Positions 1 through 64,000 of a DNA stretch of 64,000 nt are shown here, piece by piece. The stretch's first letter is position 1. Each line of letters starts with the position of its first letter. The DNA is from Eledone cirrhosa (lineage: Eukaryota). The stretch covers positions 188,170,001 to 188,234,000 of the forward strand of contig OZ024742.1 in NCBI GenBank assembly GCA_964016885.1. Direction: 5' to 3'. The notes below the pieces were generated by a model. It was not told the origin of the DNA, did not search any database, and saw only the letters and a program-made list of their open reading frames with translations. The translations under genes and the position numbers were made by a program.

Positions 1-461
1 ATTGCAAAATATGTTGCTAAAAATGTATACGGCAAGCCCAACTATTACGAGCGAGAAATAAAGGAGCCAGAAAGAATATAAATTAGAACAAAACAAAACA
101 AGAACTTACATCTTTAAATTATATTTCATATTTCGAGTTTAAATCTACTTAACACATGAATAAAATTGTGTATAATGGGAAATCAGACCGAAATCTCGCA
201 AAAAAATCTATTTGTTTGGAAGTTTGGGGAAAATACTCTCTTGTACGAGAATAACAGCTCAGTGGCTTCATTTGACACGCGTTTGCAGTTATTGATGAGG
301 TTTGAGAATTATTTTTTTATATATTTGTAAATGGTGAGAATAACTTCATATCAGTCTGTCTGCTTGTTTTTAACAGCCATCTTGAACTGACACACCCGCT
401 GTTAATCGACACCACTATCTCTCTTTCTCAAAGACACGCACTATATATATATATATGAATA

Positions 462-892: not shown

Positions 893-937
893 AGTCACTG
901 AAGAGGTCACAGAGTGTGTGACGAAAGGACTATGACT
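893..937 (+). ncRNA. Minimal type I hammerhead ribozyme motif (family A)
   Basis: AGTCA-CTGAAGA-G-GTCAC(agagtgt)GTGAC-GAAA-GGAC-TA-TGACT. Stem I AGUCA/UGACU, stem II GUCAC/GUGAC, one extra G after A9. Predicted cut after 932. Confidence 0.65.
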
Positions 938-10359: not shown

Positions 10360-13300
10360 TTACAGACACACACTCGGAGTAGGCCCATTCACTCGGGCCA
10401 TTCTTCCCTCTCTCACCCATCTTTCAACAAAATGCTGGGAAGAGAGCACTTCCCTCTCTACCCTGATTTTCCTTTTCAAATGAAATTTGAAAAAGTTAAT
10501 CAGGGCATCACCGAAGAGGTAAGTGCTCGTCTTCAAACCTTTCAAACGTGTCCACCATACTATCTCTTTCGCCATGGCCACCAGACAGATAAAGATTGCC
10601 TGCCCTTACCGGCTAAAGGAAGAGGGCGGGGCAATCCTCACGATGGACTCAACTGATAGCTGGATCGGTCTTACACGCGACAGCAGGTGTTCGACATAAA
10701 CCCAAAAGTTAGCAATGTTCGGACACTTGACGAGTGCGTGCAGGACGGTTTCGTAGCCCTGCGCACATCTCGGACATGCCCGGCTGACGGCACCTCCATG
10801 CCTGTAGAGTTTATCCCGAACTGGCAAAACTCATCGGTAGCACTGCCAGGCCAGGGATTTCTGGAAGTTGTCCATAGGCCCCGACCAGAAATTTCTTCCG
10901 AAGAGATTGGCTAGTTGATTATCGTCAACGCCTAGAGTTTCCCCAAGTACGTCGTCGCTCTTACCCTCCACTAATCCTCTATAGAACGCCGAGGTGGAGT
11001 TTCCACCGATCACATTGCCCGATTGGTCGAGGGCTGTGAGCGCCTGAAGACATTCTAGGCCCCAAGCGCTTCCTCTCGGTCTTCACTTGACCCAGGACCG
11101 CAGCTCCGTCAAGGAGGCGAGCTGGGGAAAGACGCGTCTAGCAAACGGCGACCACACCTGATCACCGTTGAGGAAGAGGTGGAGATGTCGTAGCCTGAGT
11201 GCGTGTCTGCGCATCATCAGCCACGGCATGTCCACCCCTCCACGTAGCGGGTGTTGACAGCAGATGGACAGCCTTACCATCGGAGCGCGTCCCTTGCACA
11301 AAAAGCGAAAGACCAAACGCTCCAGGGTAGTCAGGCGGGGCTTAGGACAAGGTACGACGGTCAGGCGGTAGTAGATGACGGACGCGATGTACGCGTTAGC
11401 CACATCCGCTCGATATGTCAGGGTTAGCTGCCTCTCCGCCCATTTCTGGGTGAGAGAAGCCACCCTGCACATCACCTCGTCCCAGTGTTTGTCCGTATGG
11501 AGGTCCGGACCGAACCAGACCCCTAGCAATTTAACCGGTATGTCCGCCCAGTGTCCCACGACGCTGTTGGACTGCATGGACCTCCCTCTCCAGGTGCTGA
11601 GCTGCAGGCCCACAGACTTTACTGGTTGATCACTGCTCCTGTCACCGCTTCGTATTCTCTTAGTGTAGTGCCGATCGCCTCAATGTGTTTGGAGTTTGAC
11701 ACCACTACGGTGACATCGTCCGCATATGCTGACACGGATCTTCCGCATCCTAGTTCGCGCGGGACCCCCTCAACGTCTCCAGCTTGTGCAGTAATGGCTC
11801 GAGAGTCAATACGTACAAGTGGGACGCGAGGGGACATCCTTGGCGGACCTAGCGCATGAAGTTGAACGGTTCCGAAATGTGACCGTTCACTCTCACCACA
11901 GAGCAGATGTCGCTGTGCATGGCAGCGATCCAGCCTCTGAAGACGGGCCCAAAGCCTGCCGCCTTCATGACTGCCGCTAGGTAACGCTGGTCGACCCTAT
12001 CGAAATCTTTCGACTGATCTAAATTGATCAAGGACCCACCCGTGCCTGGTTCCCTAGCTACCCTCTCTACGATGTATCGCATGAGGTGGAGGTTGTTGTG
12101 GTATGGATCTGTCGGGAATGGCGCATATCTGCGCCTCTTCCACCAGACCACCAACGACAAGCGCCAACCTCTTTGCTAGCACCTTGACCAAAATATTGAA
12201 CTCTGTGTTTAGCAGAGTTATGTCCTGAAATTATCTATGTTATCCCCCTTGTTTGGATCCTTTCTCAGCAGCGCCACGACTCCTCGGCCCACAGAGCTGG
12301 GAATTCTCCCGTTCTGTTGCCAGTTGCAGTAGACGTCCGCCAAGACGCCTCCGAACTAGTCTGGCATCTGTACGTAAAGTTCATAGGGCTGACCATCCAA
12401 ACCAGGCGATTTACCCCTTGTGCAGCCAGTCATTGCCTCCCGTTCTTCCGCCTCTGTTATCGGCTTTTCGCAACACTCCGCCTCAGTGGCCGAGAGCCGC
12501 GGCAGTCAGTCGAGGTAGACACTAAAGTCCATCCCTCGATCCGGCCCGCCGCTGACCCCGAACAGCTGAGCGAACTCTCGCTGAAAAGCTTCAAGCATTT
12601 GCCCGGGATCGAGTAGCATGCACCCGTCGTGGTCCACCAAAACCGGATCGTGGCTTTGTTGCCACGAGCGCCTCCGTCACTCGGACCCATTGAACCGCTT
12701 TCGTCCCCTCATATCTGAGAGCACGCACCCTAGCTCTGACAACGCAGCCTTCGTGCTTTGCATTGGTCAAGGGCCAATTTCGCCGCCAGTACGTCGGTCG
12801 CGATGGCTTTTCTGAACGCCTCGTCTAATTTTCCAACTAGTTCTCCCTCTGCTCTAGTTTTCCCCATAGCTAAAGCCTTACCAAACCTAATGGACTCTAT
12901 TGTAATCGTTCTTTTCAGAGCAAACCACCACTTGTTGTTGACGATAGCACCCGTCAACGCTCGGTTAACTAGTTCACTAATCCGGTCTCTGTAGGCCTTG
13001 CGCGCTGGTAAGGACGCGTTTAGCTTCCAGTAGCCGGGTCCTCGTCTATGAAGCCTATCTAAGTCAAGCATACAGATGACGAATTTGTGGTTCATGTAGC
13101 TAACTATCTTGAATTGTGGACAGCGTATGCTAGACCTATCTATTTCCCTACAAGATACTCTATCTAGATATGATCTGGATGACCTTATGCGGTTAGTCCA
13201 AGTCCACATTGGCACATTCGGGAAATTCAAAATGCCTGAGCAGGTTAGTGAGGCTCATGCACCCTCTCCTCTTATCCGCTAATCCCACATTGTCCCAGCG

Positions 13301-13744
13301 TGCATCTAAGATCCCGTTCCAGTCGCGCACTAACACTACAAAGCGGGACGTTCCTAGAATGTTCTCCAGATGCCTGAAGAATTCAGGCCGCCTTGCTCCT
13401 GTCGGGGAATATGCGGCCACTAGCCCGAAAGCTTGCCCATCTCCGCTGGTCACGTCCAGCACCACCAACTCACCTATGGGTTGAGGTAGATGGCCCGTAT
13501 GGCGAGATCCAAACCTCTCCGAAAAAGCGCAGCAGCTCCTTCCCCCGATCCAGGACAGCTGGGAGATGCGTACACATCGTAGCCGCCGAAAATCGGTGCG
13601 AAGGCCCGTGTTTCGGAGATTCTGGTCTCGCAGATGGCCACTACACTTATGTTTAGTGACCTGAGGTCGTTGAGCAGGTGGCCGAGCTTCCATGACGACC
13701 CCCAACCCACGCGCATTTATGCTGCCTATTATGAATGAGGTCAT
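10360..13744 (-). pseudogene. Tx1 ORF2 (APE endonuclease-reverse transcriptase-zinc finger), frameshifted
   Basis: Fragments: MTSFIIGSINARGL; VVAICETRI; AAYSPT; DWN; WTWTN..SYLDR; GPGYWKLNAS; LINLDQSKDFDRV; SAYADDVTV; KLLGVWFG; CPRC..ETVLHALVKC. Confidence 0.9.
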
Positions 13745-14089
13745 GTTTAAAATAGAGTGGAAAAGATGGGAAAGACCACTTACCTTACTTCTCGTAAAGG
13801 AAGGATGGAGAAACCATCCTTTTCCACTTGATCGTCTGGTGAAGGGACCGTTGAATCGTCCCTACGGCTGGTCGTCGGCTCTTCTGTGAGTATATACGAA
13901 TATACTGTCCGGTTGACTGTCCCTCCTAGGTCTCTGAAATCACCAACTGCGTTGGGGCATTTTATTTTAATGTTTGTGTATTGTTTCTGTGCTATCCTTA
14001 CCAGTCTTATGTTCGTTGGTGTTTTGATTAGTGCAGGTATTATGTAGTCGTGTTGTGAAATGTCTGTGTGTTCAATTATGTAAGTCATT

Positions 14090-22166: not shown

Positions 22167-22214
<48 letters not shown>

Positions 22215-22217
<3 letters not shown>

Positions 22218-22309
22218 AGTAAGTAAGACCCCGACGGCTGAGCTCAAGCCGTTTCGACGGCTAATTCTGTACGTTATGGTCCACTTGGTTCCTTACCACT
22301 TTTCCTTCG

Positions 22310-22310
<1 letters not shown>
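22215..22310 (+). mobile_element. (TA)n-inserted short element, family E
   Basis: Inverted segment joined to tail ...ccttaccacttttccttcgc(TA)n. Other copies at 24305-24497, 26178-26232 and 63441-63553. Confidence 0.6.
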
Positions 22311-22360
<50 letters not shown>

Positions 22361-24304: not shown

Positions 24305-24306
<2 letters not shown>

Positions 24307-24497
24307 CGAAGGAAATGTGGTAAAGAACCAGGTGGACCATAACGCACCAAAGTACTCAATACTTAGGGTAGTAGAGTGGGTAATAGGAACGAGTAGGACC
24401 CCGACGGCTGAGCTCAAGCCGTTTCGGCGGCTAATTCTGGACTGAATTAGCCGTCGAAACGGCTTCAGCTCAGCCGTTGGGGTCCTACTCGTTCCTA
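24305..24497 (-). mobile_element. Family E fold-back element
   Basis: Hairpin 24383-24497 centred at ~24440, with the tail on the minus strand. Flanked by (TA)n. Confidence 0.65.
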
Positions 24498-24528
24498 TAT
24501 ATATATATAATATATATATATATATACA

Positions 24529-25127
24529 TGCAGTTTGTTTACACGCCAACACAAGAGCAAGAATGGGAGGCTCATTCTACTGATATGCTTAAAAGAGGCT
24601 GTTTGCGTAATTGCAAACAAATCGAATATTAATATTAATATTCGAAAAGGTCAGATTACATTTATTGTATTCAGCCATGTAGAGGGATAACAATTTGTTA
24701 TTTATTTCAATTTTGCAAACCCGGCCATTAATCGGTCGTATACATGAAACCGACTGGCCTATCTGCTGATATCCAGATCTGGCTGATCAGTGGTGGATCT
24801 GCTAATATGCAGATCTGACTCATCAGACAGTCTGCTAATATGCAAATCAGGCCTATCAGTCATTGTATATTTCAGAAAATATCATATAGTTTCACTAGCT
24901 CTGACAGTTGGCAGGTGAGAAGTAAACTGCACCGATGAAGGGTAATCACCCAGAACCATTAGTGTCTGCCGTTCTGGTTTTATGTCGGCACAAGAGCAAG
25001 AATGACGGTGTCATTCTACTGACATGGCTTAAAAGAGATTGTTTGTATAATTGCAAACGAATCGAACATTATTATTAATATTCGATTACATTTATTGTAT
25101 TTAACCATGTAGAGTGATAACTACTTG

Positions 25128-25130
<3 letters not shown>
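24529..25130 (+). mobile_element. Hammerhead-bearing non-coding element, family H, with direct terminal repeats (retrozyme / non-autonomous PLE-like)
   Basis: 24529-24702 repeats at 24967-25130 (period 438). Decayed hammerhead at 24924-24974. Flanked by (TA)n. Confidence 0.7.
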
Positions 25131-25178
<48 letters not shown>

Positions 25179-38961: not shown

Positions 38962-39816
38962 GTATATATATGTATAAATATATATATATATATATATATG
39001 ATAAACTTAAATCATACAATTCGGAAAAAATGGGGCCCAGATAATTCTACGTGGAGAGGAACAGTGTATATCGTGTTGACCTGTACATATATTAAGTTTA
39101 TTATTCATGAAATAAAAATAAATTAAGGGCCCGCGGATACCGTGAATATAGGAGTTGTGAGAGCGCAATCTCTTTTAAGAAAGTAAAGTAACTAAAAGAA
39201 ATACATTTTAACTGAAATTGTTTATGAAATCGATAAACAAATGACCATGATATATTGGTATTTAAAACCATAAAATACGTCAATCAAAATAAGCCCAATC
39301 GAGAAGGACACAGATTGTGTAAATATAATTCGGAAAAATGAGTTTTATATAAATTGAGATTACGATAATCCAGACAACGTTTATTTGTCTTATTAAAGGT
39401 TTTATCTTGTAACTACTGGCAAATGAAAAGTAGCTAATGATAGAAACGTAGATATGTTAATACTCGTAGAAAAGTGCATATATGTTTCATCATGTGTAGT
39501 ATATATATTTACAACTCAATATTGAAAGGGACTTAATACCAAATAAGATGAGATGTACTAAACGGCATATTACCAGGAACTTTTGCCTTTGTCATTAAGG
39601 CGTACTCTTTGTAATCTCCGTGATTTTCGGCCTCGGATCTGCGGCGTCTAATCTCGGGCAGAGTATATTAATGCTTCTCTGATCAATAATTTAAGATTAA
39701 TCCCAACAAATCAAAGAAGAGAATATGACATAATTATGCAGCTATATATATATATATATATATATATACAAATAGTGAAAACAATGAAATTAAACAAAAG
39801 ACGGTTAATTCATAGT

Positions 39817-39964
39817 AAAACTAATTATTTTACGATCGTTTCTCGGGGATAGTTCCCGTATGTCCATTCTATTATTGATCTATGTAAAATATATTACAAA
39901 TTATCATAGTAAGAAAATATACATACGTCTTATCTACCCGCCGTCTTCAGAAATAATGACTTTT
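39817..39964 (-). ncRNA. Hammerhead ribozyme with long stem II, inverted pLTR copy
   Basis: AAAAGTCATTATTT-CTGAAGA-~100 nt-GAAA-CGATCG-TA-AAATAATTAGTTTT. Confidence 0.7.
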
Positions 39965-39989
39965 GTTTATTGAAGAATACATTCTATAC

Positions 39990-41022
39990 ATACCCAATAT
40001 AAGAATAGAAAATCAATTAGAAACCATAAAAGAAACGTAACATGGTATAACGCTCCATTTAACTTGCAAACTATGGGCCAAATCCCTAAACATTTTTTTG
40101 CAATTCCCGACAAACGTTTCCCACCTAACCACAAATACCATCAAATCTTAAACAGATATACAGTAAAATGTTCTTACTCCACATCGAGCAATATACAACA
40201 AACAATAAGTGCATATAACATCTATAAATGTATACCATATACAATAGCACACCACATACAAGCTAACTATAATAATACTACAACGCATAACCAGAATATT
40301 ATTAAATATCCCCCTGTTACAACCGCTCAATCACCTCATCAACACAATACATCAGCCGACAACTAACTACCATTTTTCTCATCCTTAATAGGGTCTAAGA
40401 ATTACATACAAAATTTAACCAATAACTTCCAAAACAACCATGATTCTATAAACGCTATATCCAGTATAATTTCACCAACTAACAACCCTTCGGGCCGTCA
40501 CCATCCAGCCGCAAACCCTTCTCTCCCATATAAAAAGTTAAATAGATATACTAGCCCTATTATTGGGAATATAGCTAGCACATCTGAAACCCTATGTACA
40601 AACGGTTGTAATTGTAGAGTAAAAAGTAATTGCCCCTTAAATGTAAATTACTTAATTAATAATATAAATGTATAATCACCACTAAGGACTCTAATCAATC
40701 CTATATTGGATACATTTCTAATCCGTTTAAATCGAGATTTTATGCACACACCCACAGTTTTCGAAACACAAAATTAGCTAATACCACTTCTTTAGCAGAA
40801 GCAGTTAATAATTGTAAAAAGAAGAATATTGATTATAACCTAACTAGGAAGATTCTCAAGAGAGCCATTTCTTATCAGGGCAATAGAAGGGAGTGTGGAC
40901 TATGTTCCCAAGAAACTTTTGAAATTACTAAATCGAAGGACATTCTATTAAATAAAAGACAAGAATTGATTAAGGCATGTAACCATAAAATTAGAAGGAC
41001 ATTCAAATATAAATACAACTAA
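39990..41022 (+). pseudogene. PLE C-terminus: linker + GIY-YIG endonuclease (tentatively Nematis-type)
   Basis: Hand translation: RNVTWYNAPFN..FPPNHKYHQILNRYTVKCSYS; CNCRVKSNCPLN; SYIGYISNPFKSRFYAHTHSF..ECGLCSQETFEI..LLNKRQELIKACNH..YN*. Contains stops and frameshifts. Confidence 0.85.
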
Positions 41023-41050
41023 GAAAATATAGAAAGAGATATAGGAGAAA

Positions 41051-41154
<104 letters not shown>

Positions 41155-41958
41155 TTATATATATGTGTATATATGTGTATACATAGGTGTGTGTCTCTAT
41201 ATATATATGTGTGTGCGTGTGTGTATGTATGTGTGTGTATGTATATATGTATGTATATGTATGTGTATATATATTTTTTTTTTCTGCTATTTATCCATGG
41301 GTTAAATCCTAACTGTTTTAAGTAATTAACTATTAATGAGCACTAAATATTACATTATATTCAACAATCTAACAAAACTTTTAACGGATATGCATTTAAA
41401 CCCCCCTTTAAAAAAAAAACAACAGATTATTAATGAGATTTCTTATTCGAAAATATAATTCCCTACAAGTAAAACTTATTTCTGACCACTCTAACACTAT
41501 ACAATACTTACACACACTTTAGTATTTTCTTACCTATATAGTATTTTATCTATTTTTTATCTAAATTTTACTTTCCTTTGGTTCCATCTATATTCCTCCA
41601 CTTGTTCTATTTTTAGAACAAATTAATCCTCTCGAACAAAGAAATAACAAATATTTAGGATAGTTCTATACTATTCTACTTGATGTAACACACTGATATC
41701 TGCACCCCTTTTCCTCCAACTCTTATCTTCTTTGACTATCCAAACTTTTCTATACAATATGTCTAAATTCCTTTACACTCTCAACTTTCCTTTTTTTCAT
41801 AAAAGTCATTTGATACCTCATCCCCTGACTGCTAATTTATTCATCTACTACCAGCTTAATGATATATATTGCCCCTTCCTATTTTTAGTATTGGTCAATC
41901 TCAACCTTGTTTATAAAACGTTACATATTCATATGTTATTTTGTATTCATCAATAAAC

Positions 41959-42091
41959 AAAACTCATTATTTCTGAAGACGTATGCATATTTTCTTACTA
42001 TGATAAGTTGTAATATATTTTACATAGATCAATAATAGAATGAACATACGGAGACCTAGCCCCCAGAAACGATCGTAAAATAATGAGTTTT
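41959..42091 (+). ncRNA. Hammerhead ribozyme with long stem II in PLE 3' pLTR
   Basis: Perfect 14-bp stem I AAAACTCATTATTT/AAATAATGAGTTTT. CTGAAGA at 41973, GAAA at 42066, palindromic stem III ACGATCGT. Predicted cut after 42077. Confidence 0.75.
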
Positions 42092-42275
42092 ACTATGAAT
42101 TACCCGTATTTTGTTTAATTTCATTGTTTTCACTATTTGTATTTTTGACTCTGTATCCAATGAATTATATCGTTCAAATTTTGTATTTTAAACTTTGCTT
42201 GACGACATTTTCAACATACGGATTACATTAAGTTCTTCATACGGCTTATACCCTACCATTAATTGGTGGATTTAG

Positions 42276-47810: not shown

Positions 47811-49493
47811 TCAGATATTCAGGACGTATCGGAGGGTTCTTGCTGTTCCTAGCAAGCATGCCTTTTGAAGCGTTCCAAAAAGCGTGAAGGGGCCAATTTT
47901 CGTTAACCATCCCTGGAAACTTTTTGAGATAGTACCTAGTGCGCCTATGACAATCGGGACCACTTTGACTTCATGGCAGTTCCAAATCCTTTTTACCTCC
48001 CACTTTAAGTCCTGGTATCGGTTAATTTTCTCCCTCTCCTTCTCTTGCATTCTCCTGTCGAATGGGCAGGCCACATCCACAATCAGGCACGATCTTTTTT
48101 CCTTGTCCAAAACCGCCAGGTCAGGTCTATTGAGGGCCTGCTCTTGCGCAGCCGCTAACATTCCTTCTGTAGCCTTTTTAAGGTCTCCTCTTTTCAACCA
48201 GTTCCATGTCTGTGGATCTCTTAATTCAGTTTTCTCAACGAAGGTACTATGAAGGGATTTTTCATGAAGTGTGATCTTTCTCCTTGTTGTTATTTCCTCC
48301 TTGCACATCCCCTGGTCTATTGTTCTCTCCTTCAGTACAGTTCTGAGCATTGGCTCCTTACTATCAGTCACGTATTTGTGTAGGTTGTTTTTCTCCATCT
48401 GAACACAGTCCCCTATGCTGATAAGACCTCTTCCACCTTCAGATCTCCTTAAGTAGAGTCTATCGACATCACTCCTCTTGTGGAACATGTTGTAGATAGT
48501 CAATAGCTTCCTAGTCTTCCTATCCATTTCTTTTTGTTCAGCAACATTCCATCTCAGAATTCCCGCACTGTACCTAATAATAGACACAACTCGGGAATTT
48601 ACTGCACTTATGGCATTCCTACTGTTCAGATGTGTCTTTAATACGCTCCTTACTCTCCGAATGTATTCAGATCTTCTCAATTCCTTCATTGTTTTATTCT
48701 TGATGTCATCAGCCTCCAGAACACCTAAATACTTGTATCCTTCTTCAGTGTCAATTTCCTTTATCATCTCACCTGTTGGTACCTGGATTCCGTTGCTTCT
48801 GCTCAATTTACCCCTCTTCATCACAAGGACCCCACACTTACTAATACCAAATTGCATACATATATCATTGCTGAAAATACGGACAGTGTCAACAAGCACA
48901 TCCAACTCCTTCTCACTCTTCCCGAAGAGCTTAAGATCGTCCATGAAGAGGAGGTGATTGATGGTAAGCTCTCCCTTTCCCAACTTGTATCCTGCTCTCA
49001 CTATTCGCAGTATAATGGTCAGGGGCATCAGGGCAAGGACAAACAACAGAGGGGACAGACTATCTCCCTGGAAGATACCTCTCTTGATCTTCACGCCTCC
49101 CAAGGATTCTCCAGCTGATGTTAACTCTGTTTTCCAGGACTTCATACTTTTGCCCAACAACTCTCTGATGTTATCTGCCACCTTGAAGATCTCTAGGCTT
49201 TTGGTGATCCAAGAATGAGGCACCATGGCAAATGCCTTTTTGTAGTCTATCCATCCCATGACAAGACCAGTGTTTCTCCTCTTGCAATTCCTCATTACCA
49301 TCTTATCAATAAGTAACTGGTCCTTTGTACTACGGGACTTATTTCGGCATCCTTTCTGTTCGTATTGTAACAAGTTGTTTGTGTGGAGGTGATGGTAGTT
49401 TTCCTCAGACATAATGCTTGTCAACAGTTTCCACATTACAGACAGACATGGTCTATAGTTGGTAACATCATTACCCTTGATTCGGTCTTTCAT
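47811..49493 (-). pseudogene. RT-RLE open segment (560 aa) of the Dong-like element
   Basis: EQKGCR, DQLLID, WIDYKKAF, RGIFQGDSLSPLLF, HLLFMDDLKLF, YKYLG, RPDL..IVDVACP, VVPIVIGALG. The CCHC/RHD segment is absent. Confidence 0.9.
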
Positions 49494-50002
49494 TACCAGA
49501 ACTGTGGTACCTCACCTGAAATCAAGCAGTCATTGAACATGGTTGTCAGTTTCGGTTGGAGGGATGTTATATTTTTAATCCAATACCCCTGCACACCATC
49601 TGGGCATGGTGATTTCCAGTTGGTTAGTTTTTTTGGCCTGCCCCTTAAGAGTTTCAACTGTGATACTCAAATCAGTTTGTTGGTGTGCCTGTTCACTAAT
49701 CTCCGTTTGTACTGTCTCAATCCACACTGCCTGGTCATTATGTTGAACATCCTGCTCCCATATTCACAGAATGTTTTAGTTTGTTCCGCCTCAGGGATCA
49801 AGTCGTTGCCTCTTTCTTTCCCTTTAAGCTGTCCAAACAGCATCTTCTGGTTGTTGTCAAACATGCGGTTCTGTCTATACTGACTGACTCTGCTCTCGTA
49901 TCGCCTAATTTGTGCACGTTTGCTACAATGCGTTGCTTCAGTTCCTCTATGATAATATTTAGCTTTTTCCTTTTAGTTTTGTACTTTATTTCGAGTCTAT
50001 TT

Positions 50003-54120: not shown

Positions 54121-54318
54121 GGATGTGAGTTTTATTGTAGTACAATAATGTTGATTTAAAACTGCACTATTCACAAGTGTTTTTTAAACTTCATATCATG
54201 TCTCCCTATTTTATCTGACGAAAACGCAAATGTCATCGCATGATGATATTGGTTTTTGAAATGCGCATAATAAAATACATGAAACTCTTTTAACCATCTT
54301 TTGATCTTATATATTATA
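54117..54318 (-). mobile_element. Family B element, with hammerhead at 54207-54277 (+)
   Basis: TATTTTAT-CTGACGA-..-GAAA-TGCGCA-TA-ATAAAATA. The reverse-complement tail is at 54117-54148. Confidence 0.75.
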
Positions 54319-55208: not shown

Positions 55209-55565
55209 ATATATATATATAAATGTCGCTCTATGTGGCTGAATACAATAACTATAATCTGAGTTATTCGAATATTAATAATTGTTTCTACTTTTTGGCA
55301 CAAGTCAAGCAATCACCCAGCGCATTACTGGTACTTTATTTTATCGACCCCGTAAAGACGAAAGGCAAAGTTAACCTCGGCGGGATTTGAACTCAAAATG
55401 GCAAGGGCCGTAATTCTATGCGTCAAAGCATGGCGTCCGACCCTCTACGGATACTGCCAATCCATAACATTCGATTCGTTTGTAATTATACAAACAAGCC
55501 TCCTTTTTATAGCCATATCAGTAAAATGAACCGTCCAGTCTTGCTCTTGTGTAGGCATGGAAACA

Positions 55566-55615
55566 GAACTGCAGACACTAATGTTTCTGGCTATCACGCT
55601 TCATCAGTACAGCTC
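55566..55615 (-). ncRNA. Type I hammerhead ribozyme, inverted-arm copy (family H)
   Basis: GAGCTGTA-CTGATGA-agcgtgatagcca-GAAA-CATTAGTG-TC-TGCAGTTC. Confidence 0.7.
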
Positions 55616-55888
55616 ATTGTTCACCTGCCAACTGTCAGAGCTAGTGAAAATATATGCTATTTTCTAAAGTATATTTGATTGTGGCAAAGCCGGCCATTTA
55701 TCGCTCGTACACAGGTAACTGACTGGCCAGTCTGCTGATATGCAAATCTTGCTGATCAGTGTATCTGCTAATATGCAGATTGACTGATCAGCCAGTATGC
55801 TAATATGCAAATCAGGCCGATCAGTCACTGTATATTTTAGAAAATAGTATATACTTTCACCAGCTCTGACAGTTGGCAGCTGAACAGT

Positions 55889-55938
55889 GAGCTGTACTGA
55901 TGAAGAGTGATACCCAGAAACATTAGCGTCTGCAGTTC
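55889..55938 (+). ncRNA. Type I hammerhead ribozyme (family H)
   Basis: GAGCTGTA-CTGATGA-agagtgataccca-GAAA-CATTAGCG-TC-TGCAGTTC. 8-bp stem I and GUC triplet. Predicted cut after 55930. Confidence 0.7.
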
Positions 55939-56068
55939 TGTTTACATGCCAACACAAGAGCAACGATGAAGGGTTCATTCTACTGACATGGCTTTAAAAG
56001 TAGGCTTGTTTGTTTAATTACAAAGGAATCGAATATTTTTATTAATATTCGAAACAAATAAGATTACT

Positions 56069-56111
<43 letters not shown>

Positions 56112-61865: not shown

Positions 61866-63440
61866 AGAATAATCGCATATGATAGATTGAAAATCAATGA
61901 TTTCTTTTATACAATCCATATATTATTGTTATAATATATTTAGAATGGCCTACAATAAAAATTACTCATCATTCCTTTTCCTACTGTACAGGGAATCTCT
62001 GTGATACTTCAAGTTAGTTGGTTTAGAAGCTTTCGTAGCTGGAGAACTAACTGGTCACGCGAATTGTTCTCGATACAGGATAAATTACAGACCAGTACTG
62101 TGATTCAGTATATTATTTACATATACAACATTTAATACAGAAGAAATACGCTTGTTGTCTATTTTAATGTAAACGCTAATGAAATGCTGAGTCACATTTA
62201 AACAAACCAACTCTTCCTACTTTACCTTGACTATCTCTTTGTTTCTTCGTCTTTATCTCTTTCAGTCTCATCGTTGACTTATGTCTCTCTTTCTATATTT
62301 CTCTATTCTCCTTTCCTTCACTTTTCCTCTCGCATATTTTATTACATATTACAACATTCATAGTGATTCTTCCTCTCGCTCTCTTTCTCTCTCTTTATCT
62401 ATCTCTGTCACTTTCTCTCTATCGCCCCCCCCCCCCTCTCTCTCTCTCTCACACACACACTAAACAACAGCAGAGTATCTTTGAATGACAAGAAGAAAGG
62501 ATTTATTGCAAACATCGTAAGCTGCACAAAGAGGCAAGGAGAAAAAAGTTCTGATAGCAACACAGTGAGGGAGGAAGAATTTAAAACAGAATTACGCCTG
62601 GGAAAAATAAATATATACGCAGGCATACAGATACACGATGGCTTTGTGTGGATTATATGGGGATAATAGAGGATTATATGAAACCATGTGGATTATTCAA
62701 CATTGATTATATAATTGTGAATGTGTGGGACTGATTTCTCATTAGTGAAGTCCGTGACATTGTATATCACATTCTCCAATATGAAGGCACAGAGAAGGGT
62801 TCTCTATGCTCAGTAAACCTGCTAGAAATAAGAGGCACATTGCCTACATACCCGAACTCATATCCGATTTCTGAAAGGTGTACCAGGTGATTTTGTTCGC
62901 CAAAAGTCATTTCATCCTTATTCAGCACCAGGAAGAATTATCTCGGTGCTAAGATAGTCTCAGGTGAGCTGGATAGCAGATGGTCTTCGGAGAAAAACCC
63001 AACCCGCTCAGGCGAGTGTCAAGCTCTTAATTTCTTACAATCTAAGAGGGTTGGCTCGCATTCGGGACACGATTCCTGAGTGCGCTTCTGCTGAAATTTA
63101 GCCATTCGAATACCGGAGACATGCTCTAACAAGTCCATATAACATCAAACATCAACGTTCAAATACATTGCTATATCTCATCTGGAATTTATATGTAGCA
63201 GTTGTCTAATTTCCCCGTGGTAAATTAGTAGACATCGACATTTGCTAGTACATCTAAGGTAGTATATTTTGTGGACTTAAACTGACACTGTATCTCTGAA
63301 GGCATAGAAAAGATATAGTGGACAGGAGTTTTCTTAAATACGAACATAATTCTGTTTGGGGACATGTTGAGATGATAAGGAAATATTCAATTGAAGGAAA
63401 TAGGAAATACTTAATTATGTACGGGTATATATATATATAT

Positions 63441-63553
63441 AGGAACCAGTAAGACCCCGACAGCTGAGCTCAAGCCGTTTTGACGGCTAATTCTGGTATT
63501 GAGTACTTTGGTGCGTTATGGTCCACTTGGTTCCTTACCACATTTCCTTCGTT
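63441..63553 (+). mobile_element. Family E element in (TA)n
   Basis: Same inverted segment and tail as 22215-22310 and 24305-24497. Confidence 0.65.
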
Positions 63554-64000
63554 ATATATATATATATATATATATGAGTTTATTGCGTTTACTCTTTGCG
63601 CAACTCTATCTTTAGAATCATTAACATAACTGGGATTTGTAATTAATAACTTTCCAGCATACGTTGCTTCACCGGCCAACTGTACTAACGATCCTGCTCA
63701 CGCAGAGCATGAGCCTGCGGTGACTGTGCAGCCATTATCTCAGTAGCAAACGAATGACAAGTCACACTCGTTTCTCTACATCCCAAACACACAGTTGTGG
63801 AGCTAGACCTTTTATTAAGAATATCAAATATTTGTTTTTATGACTATCAAAGATATATTTAAATTTTATTTAATGTTTATATAAATGCATCCTTCTCCTA
63901 AATCTTTAATAAAATCTTTAAATATCAATTTTTAATCTTTCATCTTAACTTTAATTTTAACCTTAACAATCTTTAAATTCTGAATTATCAAATTCACCCC

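Follow-up and report, generated by a model that had tools for sequence, protein, structure and literature searches.

The element at 24529 of the window (the whole stretch of 64,000 nucleotides of Eledone cirrhosa DNA analysed here, G000:C3:188170001-188234000, from a microsatellite-rich 3.0-Gb genome) is best read, with a probability of roughly two in three, as a partially tandem member of a dispersed hammerhead family with a non-coding 438-nt unit, likely copied in trans by a Penelope-like element (PLE), the family's pile-up of 5′ ends at the predicted cut likely coming from a minority of self-cleaved templates. Positions within the repeat are numbered from +1, the first base 3′ of the predicted cut, with 0 being the C that precedes it.

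A left (TA)n tract and CA were followed by TGCAGTTTG from 24529, and the element ended near 25130, ahead of (TA)22 (Table 1). The sequence-only reading had placed the start of the element exactly at its ribozyme cleavage site, and 24529 was indeed the first base after the predicted cut, the same motif also standing 3′ of GTC at 55930/55931; the leading T may derive from the microsatellite, which would put the start at +1 or +2. The recurrence of this sequence at 24967 was likewise confirmed (after a GTC ending at 24966, 438 nt from cut to cut, with 81% identity between the two repeats over 157 nt), as was the absence of coding capacity, the longest ATG ORF in 24529-25135 comprising 47 codons. 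A lone start at the cut carries little weight by itself at a background end rate of 0.54% per nt. The only ribozyme of this copy was mutated in its core (CCGATGA at 24932-24938, GAAC at 24953-24956), so that the copy would be unable to release a monomer itself. The 3′ end of the second tail repeat is likely the start of reverse transcription, and the (TA)22 flank is likely the insertion target. Directly to the left of the element, between (TA)n tracts, lay a different, internally inverted repeat (24305-24499) with relatives at 22180-22358 and 63426-63575.

Table 1. Coordinates of the copy at 24529, of the head-to-head family pair and of other hammerhead motifs in the window
Feature	Position	Strand	Description
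(TA)n microsatellite, left flank	24496..24528	.	
First tail repeat	24529..24705	+	+1 to about +176, from predicted cut; GAG/CTC hairpin subfamily
Leader	24706..24907	+	Three 33-nt repeats; predicted long hairpin
Octamer-like motifs in leader	ATGCAGAT 24807; ATGCAAAT 24840	+	Promoter role only putative
Degenerate type I hammerhead	24908..24989	+	Extended stem I; predicted cut 24966/24967
Second tail repeat	24967..25130	+	Long-tail class; TGCCG, GAC/GTC hairpin subfamily
(TA)22, right flank	25129..25172	.	
Inverted partner arm	55226..55673	-	5′ end -99, long tail (+165); hammerhead 55607-55574
Family arm	55672..56073	+	5′ end -259, short tail (+144); hammerhead core to cut 55897-55930
Further hammerhead motif	54215-54269	+	
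Further hammerhead motif	57513-57459	-	
Further hammerhead motif	2305-2250	-	
Further hammerhead motif	898-932	+	
Further hammerhead motif	758-724	-	
Hammerhead of 39766-42142 remnant	41973-42077	+	
Hammerhead of 39766-42142 remnant	39950-39831	-	

Genome-wide, two anchors gave 2,910 and 4,279 exact matches (4,279 for the tail anchor), which, being exact, are lower bounds. A total of 362 arms, a pooled rather than random sample, were mapped from 415 loci and one stretch of the window. Their 3′ ends fell into two fixed classes about 35 nt apart, with 156 short (+134-150) and 121 long (+160-190) tails, and 85 ending elsewhere. An inverted partner accompanied 201 of 339 pooled arms, and a dinucleotide repeat followed 247/362 (a raw count in a genome itself rich in microsatellites). 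Ninety head-to-head pairs were fully mapped, 31 with an unclassifiable end and 59 with both ends classifiable; 56 of these 59 combined one long and one short tail, where 29.5 would be expected (P = 6e-14). The arms of pairs also shared subfamily markers (389/429, compared to 59% when shuffled). A fold-back origin of the pairs was rejected, as the long arm reached further 5′ in only 20 of 56 cases (the short arm in 36). The partial tandem (pseudo-LTR) of the 24529 copy was one of 95 more-than-unit arms in the family sample. This anatomy of tails, inverted pairs, microsatellite flanks and tandems strongly indicates PLE-type mobilisation, in agreement with the earlier suggestion that PLE machinery is used. 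One locus (L245, G000:C1:93441254-93441295) was a perfect head-to-head fusion of two arms at a CTGCAG palindrome across the cut site.

In the mechanism that we favour, a Penelope-like reverse transcriptase/endonuclease would nick both strands of AT-rich or (TA)n DNA, priming internally at +143/148 on one and at +165-181 on the other. It would usually read through the uncut hammerhead, whose own loop III is predicted to block it, and would run off where the RNA had already been cut; a one-unit template might yield more-than-unit copies if the enzyme jumped or worked on a circle. Counting against this mechanism, no sequence shared with an autonomous partner PLE, beyond an inserted copy, was found at the 77 (73 + 4) GIY-YIG loci compared, a small part of the many thousands of candidates. 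GIY-YIG elements are many in this genome, some with hammerheads of their own, and PLE fragments lay near about 25 family loci, a raw count to be read without a background rate.

The window itself holds, at 39766-42142, a remnant of a coding Penelope-like element with inverted terminal repeats, which belongs to a large family in the genome. A GIY-YIG-like frame was recognised by eye at 40663-41022, and three ORF pieces at 39974-41019 matched no Pfam family above threshold; each terminal repeat contains a hammerhead with a roughly 100-nt insertion in stem II and a palindromic stem III. LINE-type reverse transcriptase frames were also recognised by eye at 47811-49511 (566 aa open) and 11083-13861 (broken), and at least two more hammerhead-motif repeat families, several of them as inverted pairs, were present. 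The inverted partner arm of the family pair is interrupted at 55283-55464 by an abundant SINE-like repeat, seen at many loci, which enters family copies at one ATTATTAAT site (+109), was flagged in 17/100 tail-anchored arms and was also found inserted in a U6 promoter (L287, L290).

For the analysis of 5′ ends, the first 100 contig C1 matches of each of the +17 and +116 anchors were used, with a union of 155 unique arms; arms interrupted by another repeat (4 and 17, respectively) were left out, as were the 30 best DNA matches, which are biased to full units. The end rate per nt in these 155 arms rose from 0.20% (+115..60) through 0.73% (+59..18) and 1.65% (+17..4) to 2.32% (+3..-1), and upstream of the cut was 0.50, 0.50 and 0.57% as far as -240. 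The first 100 matches of a +3 anchor, a sample overlapping the other two, included 27 without the upstream GTGTC, of which 13 were point mutants and 14 ended at -3..+3. With junctions judged individually and chance matches allowed for, 12 of the 100 copies reaching +3 ended effectively at -1..+1, compared to 1.6 expected in 3 nt (P about 2e-7), and four of the 12 had non-inverted flanks. Whole-genome nested counts (1408/998/832 and 1418/990/780), which combine mutation with truncation, gave excess losses across the cut of 15% and 11% (P = 8e-13 and 8e-7). The 5′-end footprint at the cut is real and belongs to a minority of copies. Since the excess loss was only 11-15%, most templates would have been uncut, with 85-89% of copies running through the cut, and the pile-up was likely left by the smaller share of RNA templates that had cleaved themselves. 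The enrichment of ends predicted from the 24529 copy was thus found, but in only about one copy in eight, and its explanation as a footprint of self-cleaved RNA would hold for a minority template rather than for the family at large. An apparent subfamily-specific cutting in the chromosome sample (8/31 vs 1/34, P = 0.011) was not borne out genome-wide (15% vs 11%). We found no earlier report of a 5′-end footprint of this sort in the literature searched, which included few subscription papers.

Several features of these ends count against cleavage and would suit an inert ribozyme that leaves no footprint, with the reverse transcriptase falling off in the extended stem I (+23..+1, paired with -58..-34) and junctions drawn to the TGCA at +1. 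The zone of raised end rates, which takes in +17..+4 as well as the cut, coincides with the 3′ arm of a 22-bp helix (stem I); several cut-site junctions use TGCA microhomology, and four inverted pairs are joined at TGCA-like sites; and of the 11 ends at +3..-1 in the 155 pooled arms just 2 are non-inverted. The monomer is, moreover, predicted to be blocked. This explanation nevertheless appears unlikely, because the peak stands at the exit rather than the entrance of the helix, other predicted helices show just 0.57-0.73% per nt, and ends at +1 (8/97) exceeded those at five other TGCA sites (6/275, P = 0.012), while non-inverted ends at 0/+1 do occur (4/100, plus the 24529 copy).

The commonest core, CTGATGA/GAAA/TC, was the most frequent form position by position across about 270 projected rows. 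Stems I-III are paired in it, stem II (4 bp) is flanked by an A on either side, stem III has 2-3 bp and is closed by a UUAG loop, and the cut follows GUC; core positions are cited below in hammerhead numbering (9, G12). Compared with this form, the hammerhead at 55897-55930, described earlier as intact, retains the motif and the cut site at 55930/55931 but differs by a single change in each of stems II and III. Stem I is extended, to about 22 bp, and subfamily changes mostly preserve its pairing by exchanging Watson-Crick and G.U pairs; a pair in the tail hairpin covaries (A-T 153, G-C 61, C-G 13, n = 261). On the other side, changes at -40/-41 break stem I pairs (17 T.T, 35 A.C), A faces A at the base of the 4-bp stem II in 247/269, and Rfam gave no hammerhead among the matches listed, all of which weigh against the favoured mechanism. 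The assignment as a ribozyme was accordingly made from the motif, its pairing and its covariation. In predicted monomer folds the blocked form, with the core paired with loop III, was favoured over the active one (-35.4 vs -28.3 kcal/mol); the stem III region is self-complementary, yet a dimer is not favoured by predicted energies. Because the predicted fold blocks the core, we would expect weak cleavage, as for minimal hammerheads (min-HHRs) of PLEs (PMC4209133).

The 438-nt unit is non-coding, with a GC content of 0.37-0.39, and exact two-cut dimers of it numbered 65 genome-wide, 46 of which extend past -41 and so span two ribozymes. The two repeats of these dimers agreed at 349/390 marker comparisons (56% when shuffled; n = 64 dimers, several subfamilies) and had 19 shared rare alleles against 3.2 expected. 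Because dimer repeats share subfamily markers, a one-unit template is a likely stage of the cycle. These observations would also fit a classical retrozyme cycle, in which the enzyme mainly copies a 438-nt circle and rolling-circle reverse transcription makes the more-than-unit copies, a scheme compatible with the favoured mechanism. The predicted circle is strongly self-paired (z -4.6 to -10.9 in 7/7 monomers, 20 shuffles each), and the end rate climbs about 2.5-fold after roughly one unit (to about 1.4% per nt beyond -240 in the 155 arms), as if the enzyme had met its own primer. However, none of the 64 two-cut dimers reached a third cut or passed -245 of the first cut, where 17 would be expected at the first-lap rate, so that free rolling is not supported. 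No longer arrays were among the 65 matches to a pair of cut sites spaced by about 438 nt, the longest of the 362 arms was a single 2.3-unit case (L111), and a lap-completion test gave no clear pile of short tails at -290. Since the only pairs closing the predicted circle are those of stem I, which linear RNA also contains, its fold does not separate the two forms; the repeats of the 24529 copy are, besides, discordant. We therefore regard the circle as a rather doubtful main template. The proposed monomer of ~440 nt stands insofar as a one-unit template is implied, but 438 nt is the unit length in any register.

Among the 95 more-than-unit copies, the 24529 copy was the most discordant (5/11 markers), and it was the only AAA/CG combination in 28 old-type rows. 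Its first tail and ribozyme 5′ arm belong to one old subfamily and its second tail to another; as the ribozyme 5′ arm matches the first tail and not the second, the switch falls between -40 and +4 (43 nt, about 24926-24970). One circle would give identical repeats, which disfavours a single circle here. The simplest reading, drawn from this one case, would be that the enzyme left one cut RNA and resumed at the cut end of another, a 438-nt monomer: the cut 3′ product of one subfamily would have been joined to a cut-to-cut monomer of another, which would then have been copied to its own cut 5′ end.

It is quite possible, if short of probable, that the chimerism and the exact start are coincidental, the former due to a heterodimeric source-locus transcript or a later gene conversion of the second tail, the latter to random 5′ truncation. 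This is a single, old copy (81% between repeats) with few informative markers, and linkage across the cut is otherwise kept family-wide (r2 = 0.76 between -98 and +70), so that chimeras at the cut must be rare; a family-wide recombination hot spot there was not seen. The chance of a breakpoint within the 43-nt interval is about 1 in 10, which, like the retained linkage, counts against the favoured reading. Coincidence has, however, to account for both borders of the first-subfamily segment falling on cut sites, and no sibling with the same mosaic was present among the 95 more-than-unit copies.

A very unlikely alternative is that the unit is a U6-type Pol III gene, starting at the first base of stem I, with an octamer 75 nt and a TATA 30 nt upstream of that start, and ending at the T-tract (+170-181). 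In two host U6 genes ATGCAAAT lies at -76/-77 and is followed by a TATA at -30, the U6 array has ATGCTAAT there, and the repeat unit has the same spacing to G(-50); the U2 promoters (3/3) were without an octamer within 400 nt. In the U6 genes L281, L282 and L283 the octamer is found at -76/-77, with the adjoining TATA at -30, and not at a distance upstream. Yet no U6 upstream alignment beat shuffles (5/5), and most copies include the upstream leader, although a transcript of this kind would begin downstream of it. A transcription start at -50, suggested at first by 8/30 dimers, was dropped since no 5′-end peak occurred there in all 64 dimers or in the 155 arms, and a Pol III terminator as the long 3′ end was rejected because the T-tract is absent from the old subfamily.

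The family resembles metazoan non-LTR retrozymes (Cervera and de la Pena 2020, PMC7229834; Li et al. 2026, 10.64898/2026.07.22.740005) in its short, non-coding, low-GC unit, in a type I hammerhead whose stem III has 2-3 bp and a tetraloop and whose stem II is weak at its base (axolotl HHR_Amex2 has U.U there), in its predicted self-paired circle and in the presence of PLEs in the same genome. Unlike these retrozymes with their multimer arrays, it is dispersed, mostly 5′-truncated and of about two units at most; it also has a clear PLE anatomy of tails and inversions, and most of its copies read through the cut. A pattern scan of metagenomes gave 0 matches.

With Poseidon PAc (Frangieh et al. 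2024, PMC11167929) and PLEs in general (Craig et al. 2021, PMC8557442) it shares two internal reverse-transcription starts, a 30-40 nt tail at one end only, AT-rich or microsatellite targets, extension of both strands, partial tandems, inverted 5′ copies and uncut RNA as the main template, but the family has no ORF. For PAc, which has two internal priming sites and elongates on both strands, no strand difference was reported in vitro (PMC11167929), whereas long and short starts are strictly paired per insertion here (56/59). The same study reported that uncut RNA was used and that no RNA reads fell at the cut, which counts against our explanation, while a minority of genomic ends marks the cut in this family. 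Like MRC1 of Chlamydomonas, a non-autonomous PLE, the family is non-coding and pLTR-forming; non-autonomous PLEs of that kind share 3′ sequence with an autonomous family (PMC8557442), and no such partner was found here among the 77 GIY-YIG loci. The min-HHRs of PLEs (Cervera and de la Pena 2014, PMC4209133) have in common with it an extra nucleotide after position 9, a self-complementary stem III suited to dimers, opposite-strand pairs 100-700 bp apart and low expected activity, but the family departs from them in the great length of stem I (about 22 bp), in a short stem II and in a second extra A before G12.

More tentatively, and possible rather than probable in our view, germ-line hammerhead cleavage may be recorded in this genome, with cut linear RNAs, 438-nt monomers included, serving as templates for a Penelope enzyme that jumps between RNAs, from the cut 5′ end of one to the cut 3′ end of the next. 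The 24529 copy would then be a fossil jump, and the family would link retrozymes directly to PLE machinery, with one long and one short start per insertion. Thousands of copies yield a figure for cut templates of about 11-15%; the insertion anatomy connects a retrozyme-like unit with PLE machinery, and the pairing of long with short tails is a testable constraint on the priming of both target strands.
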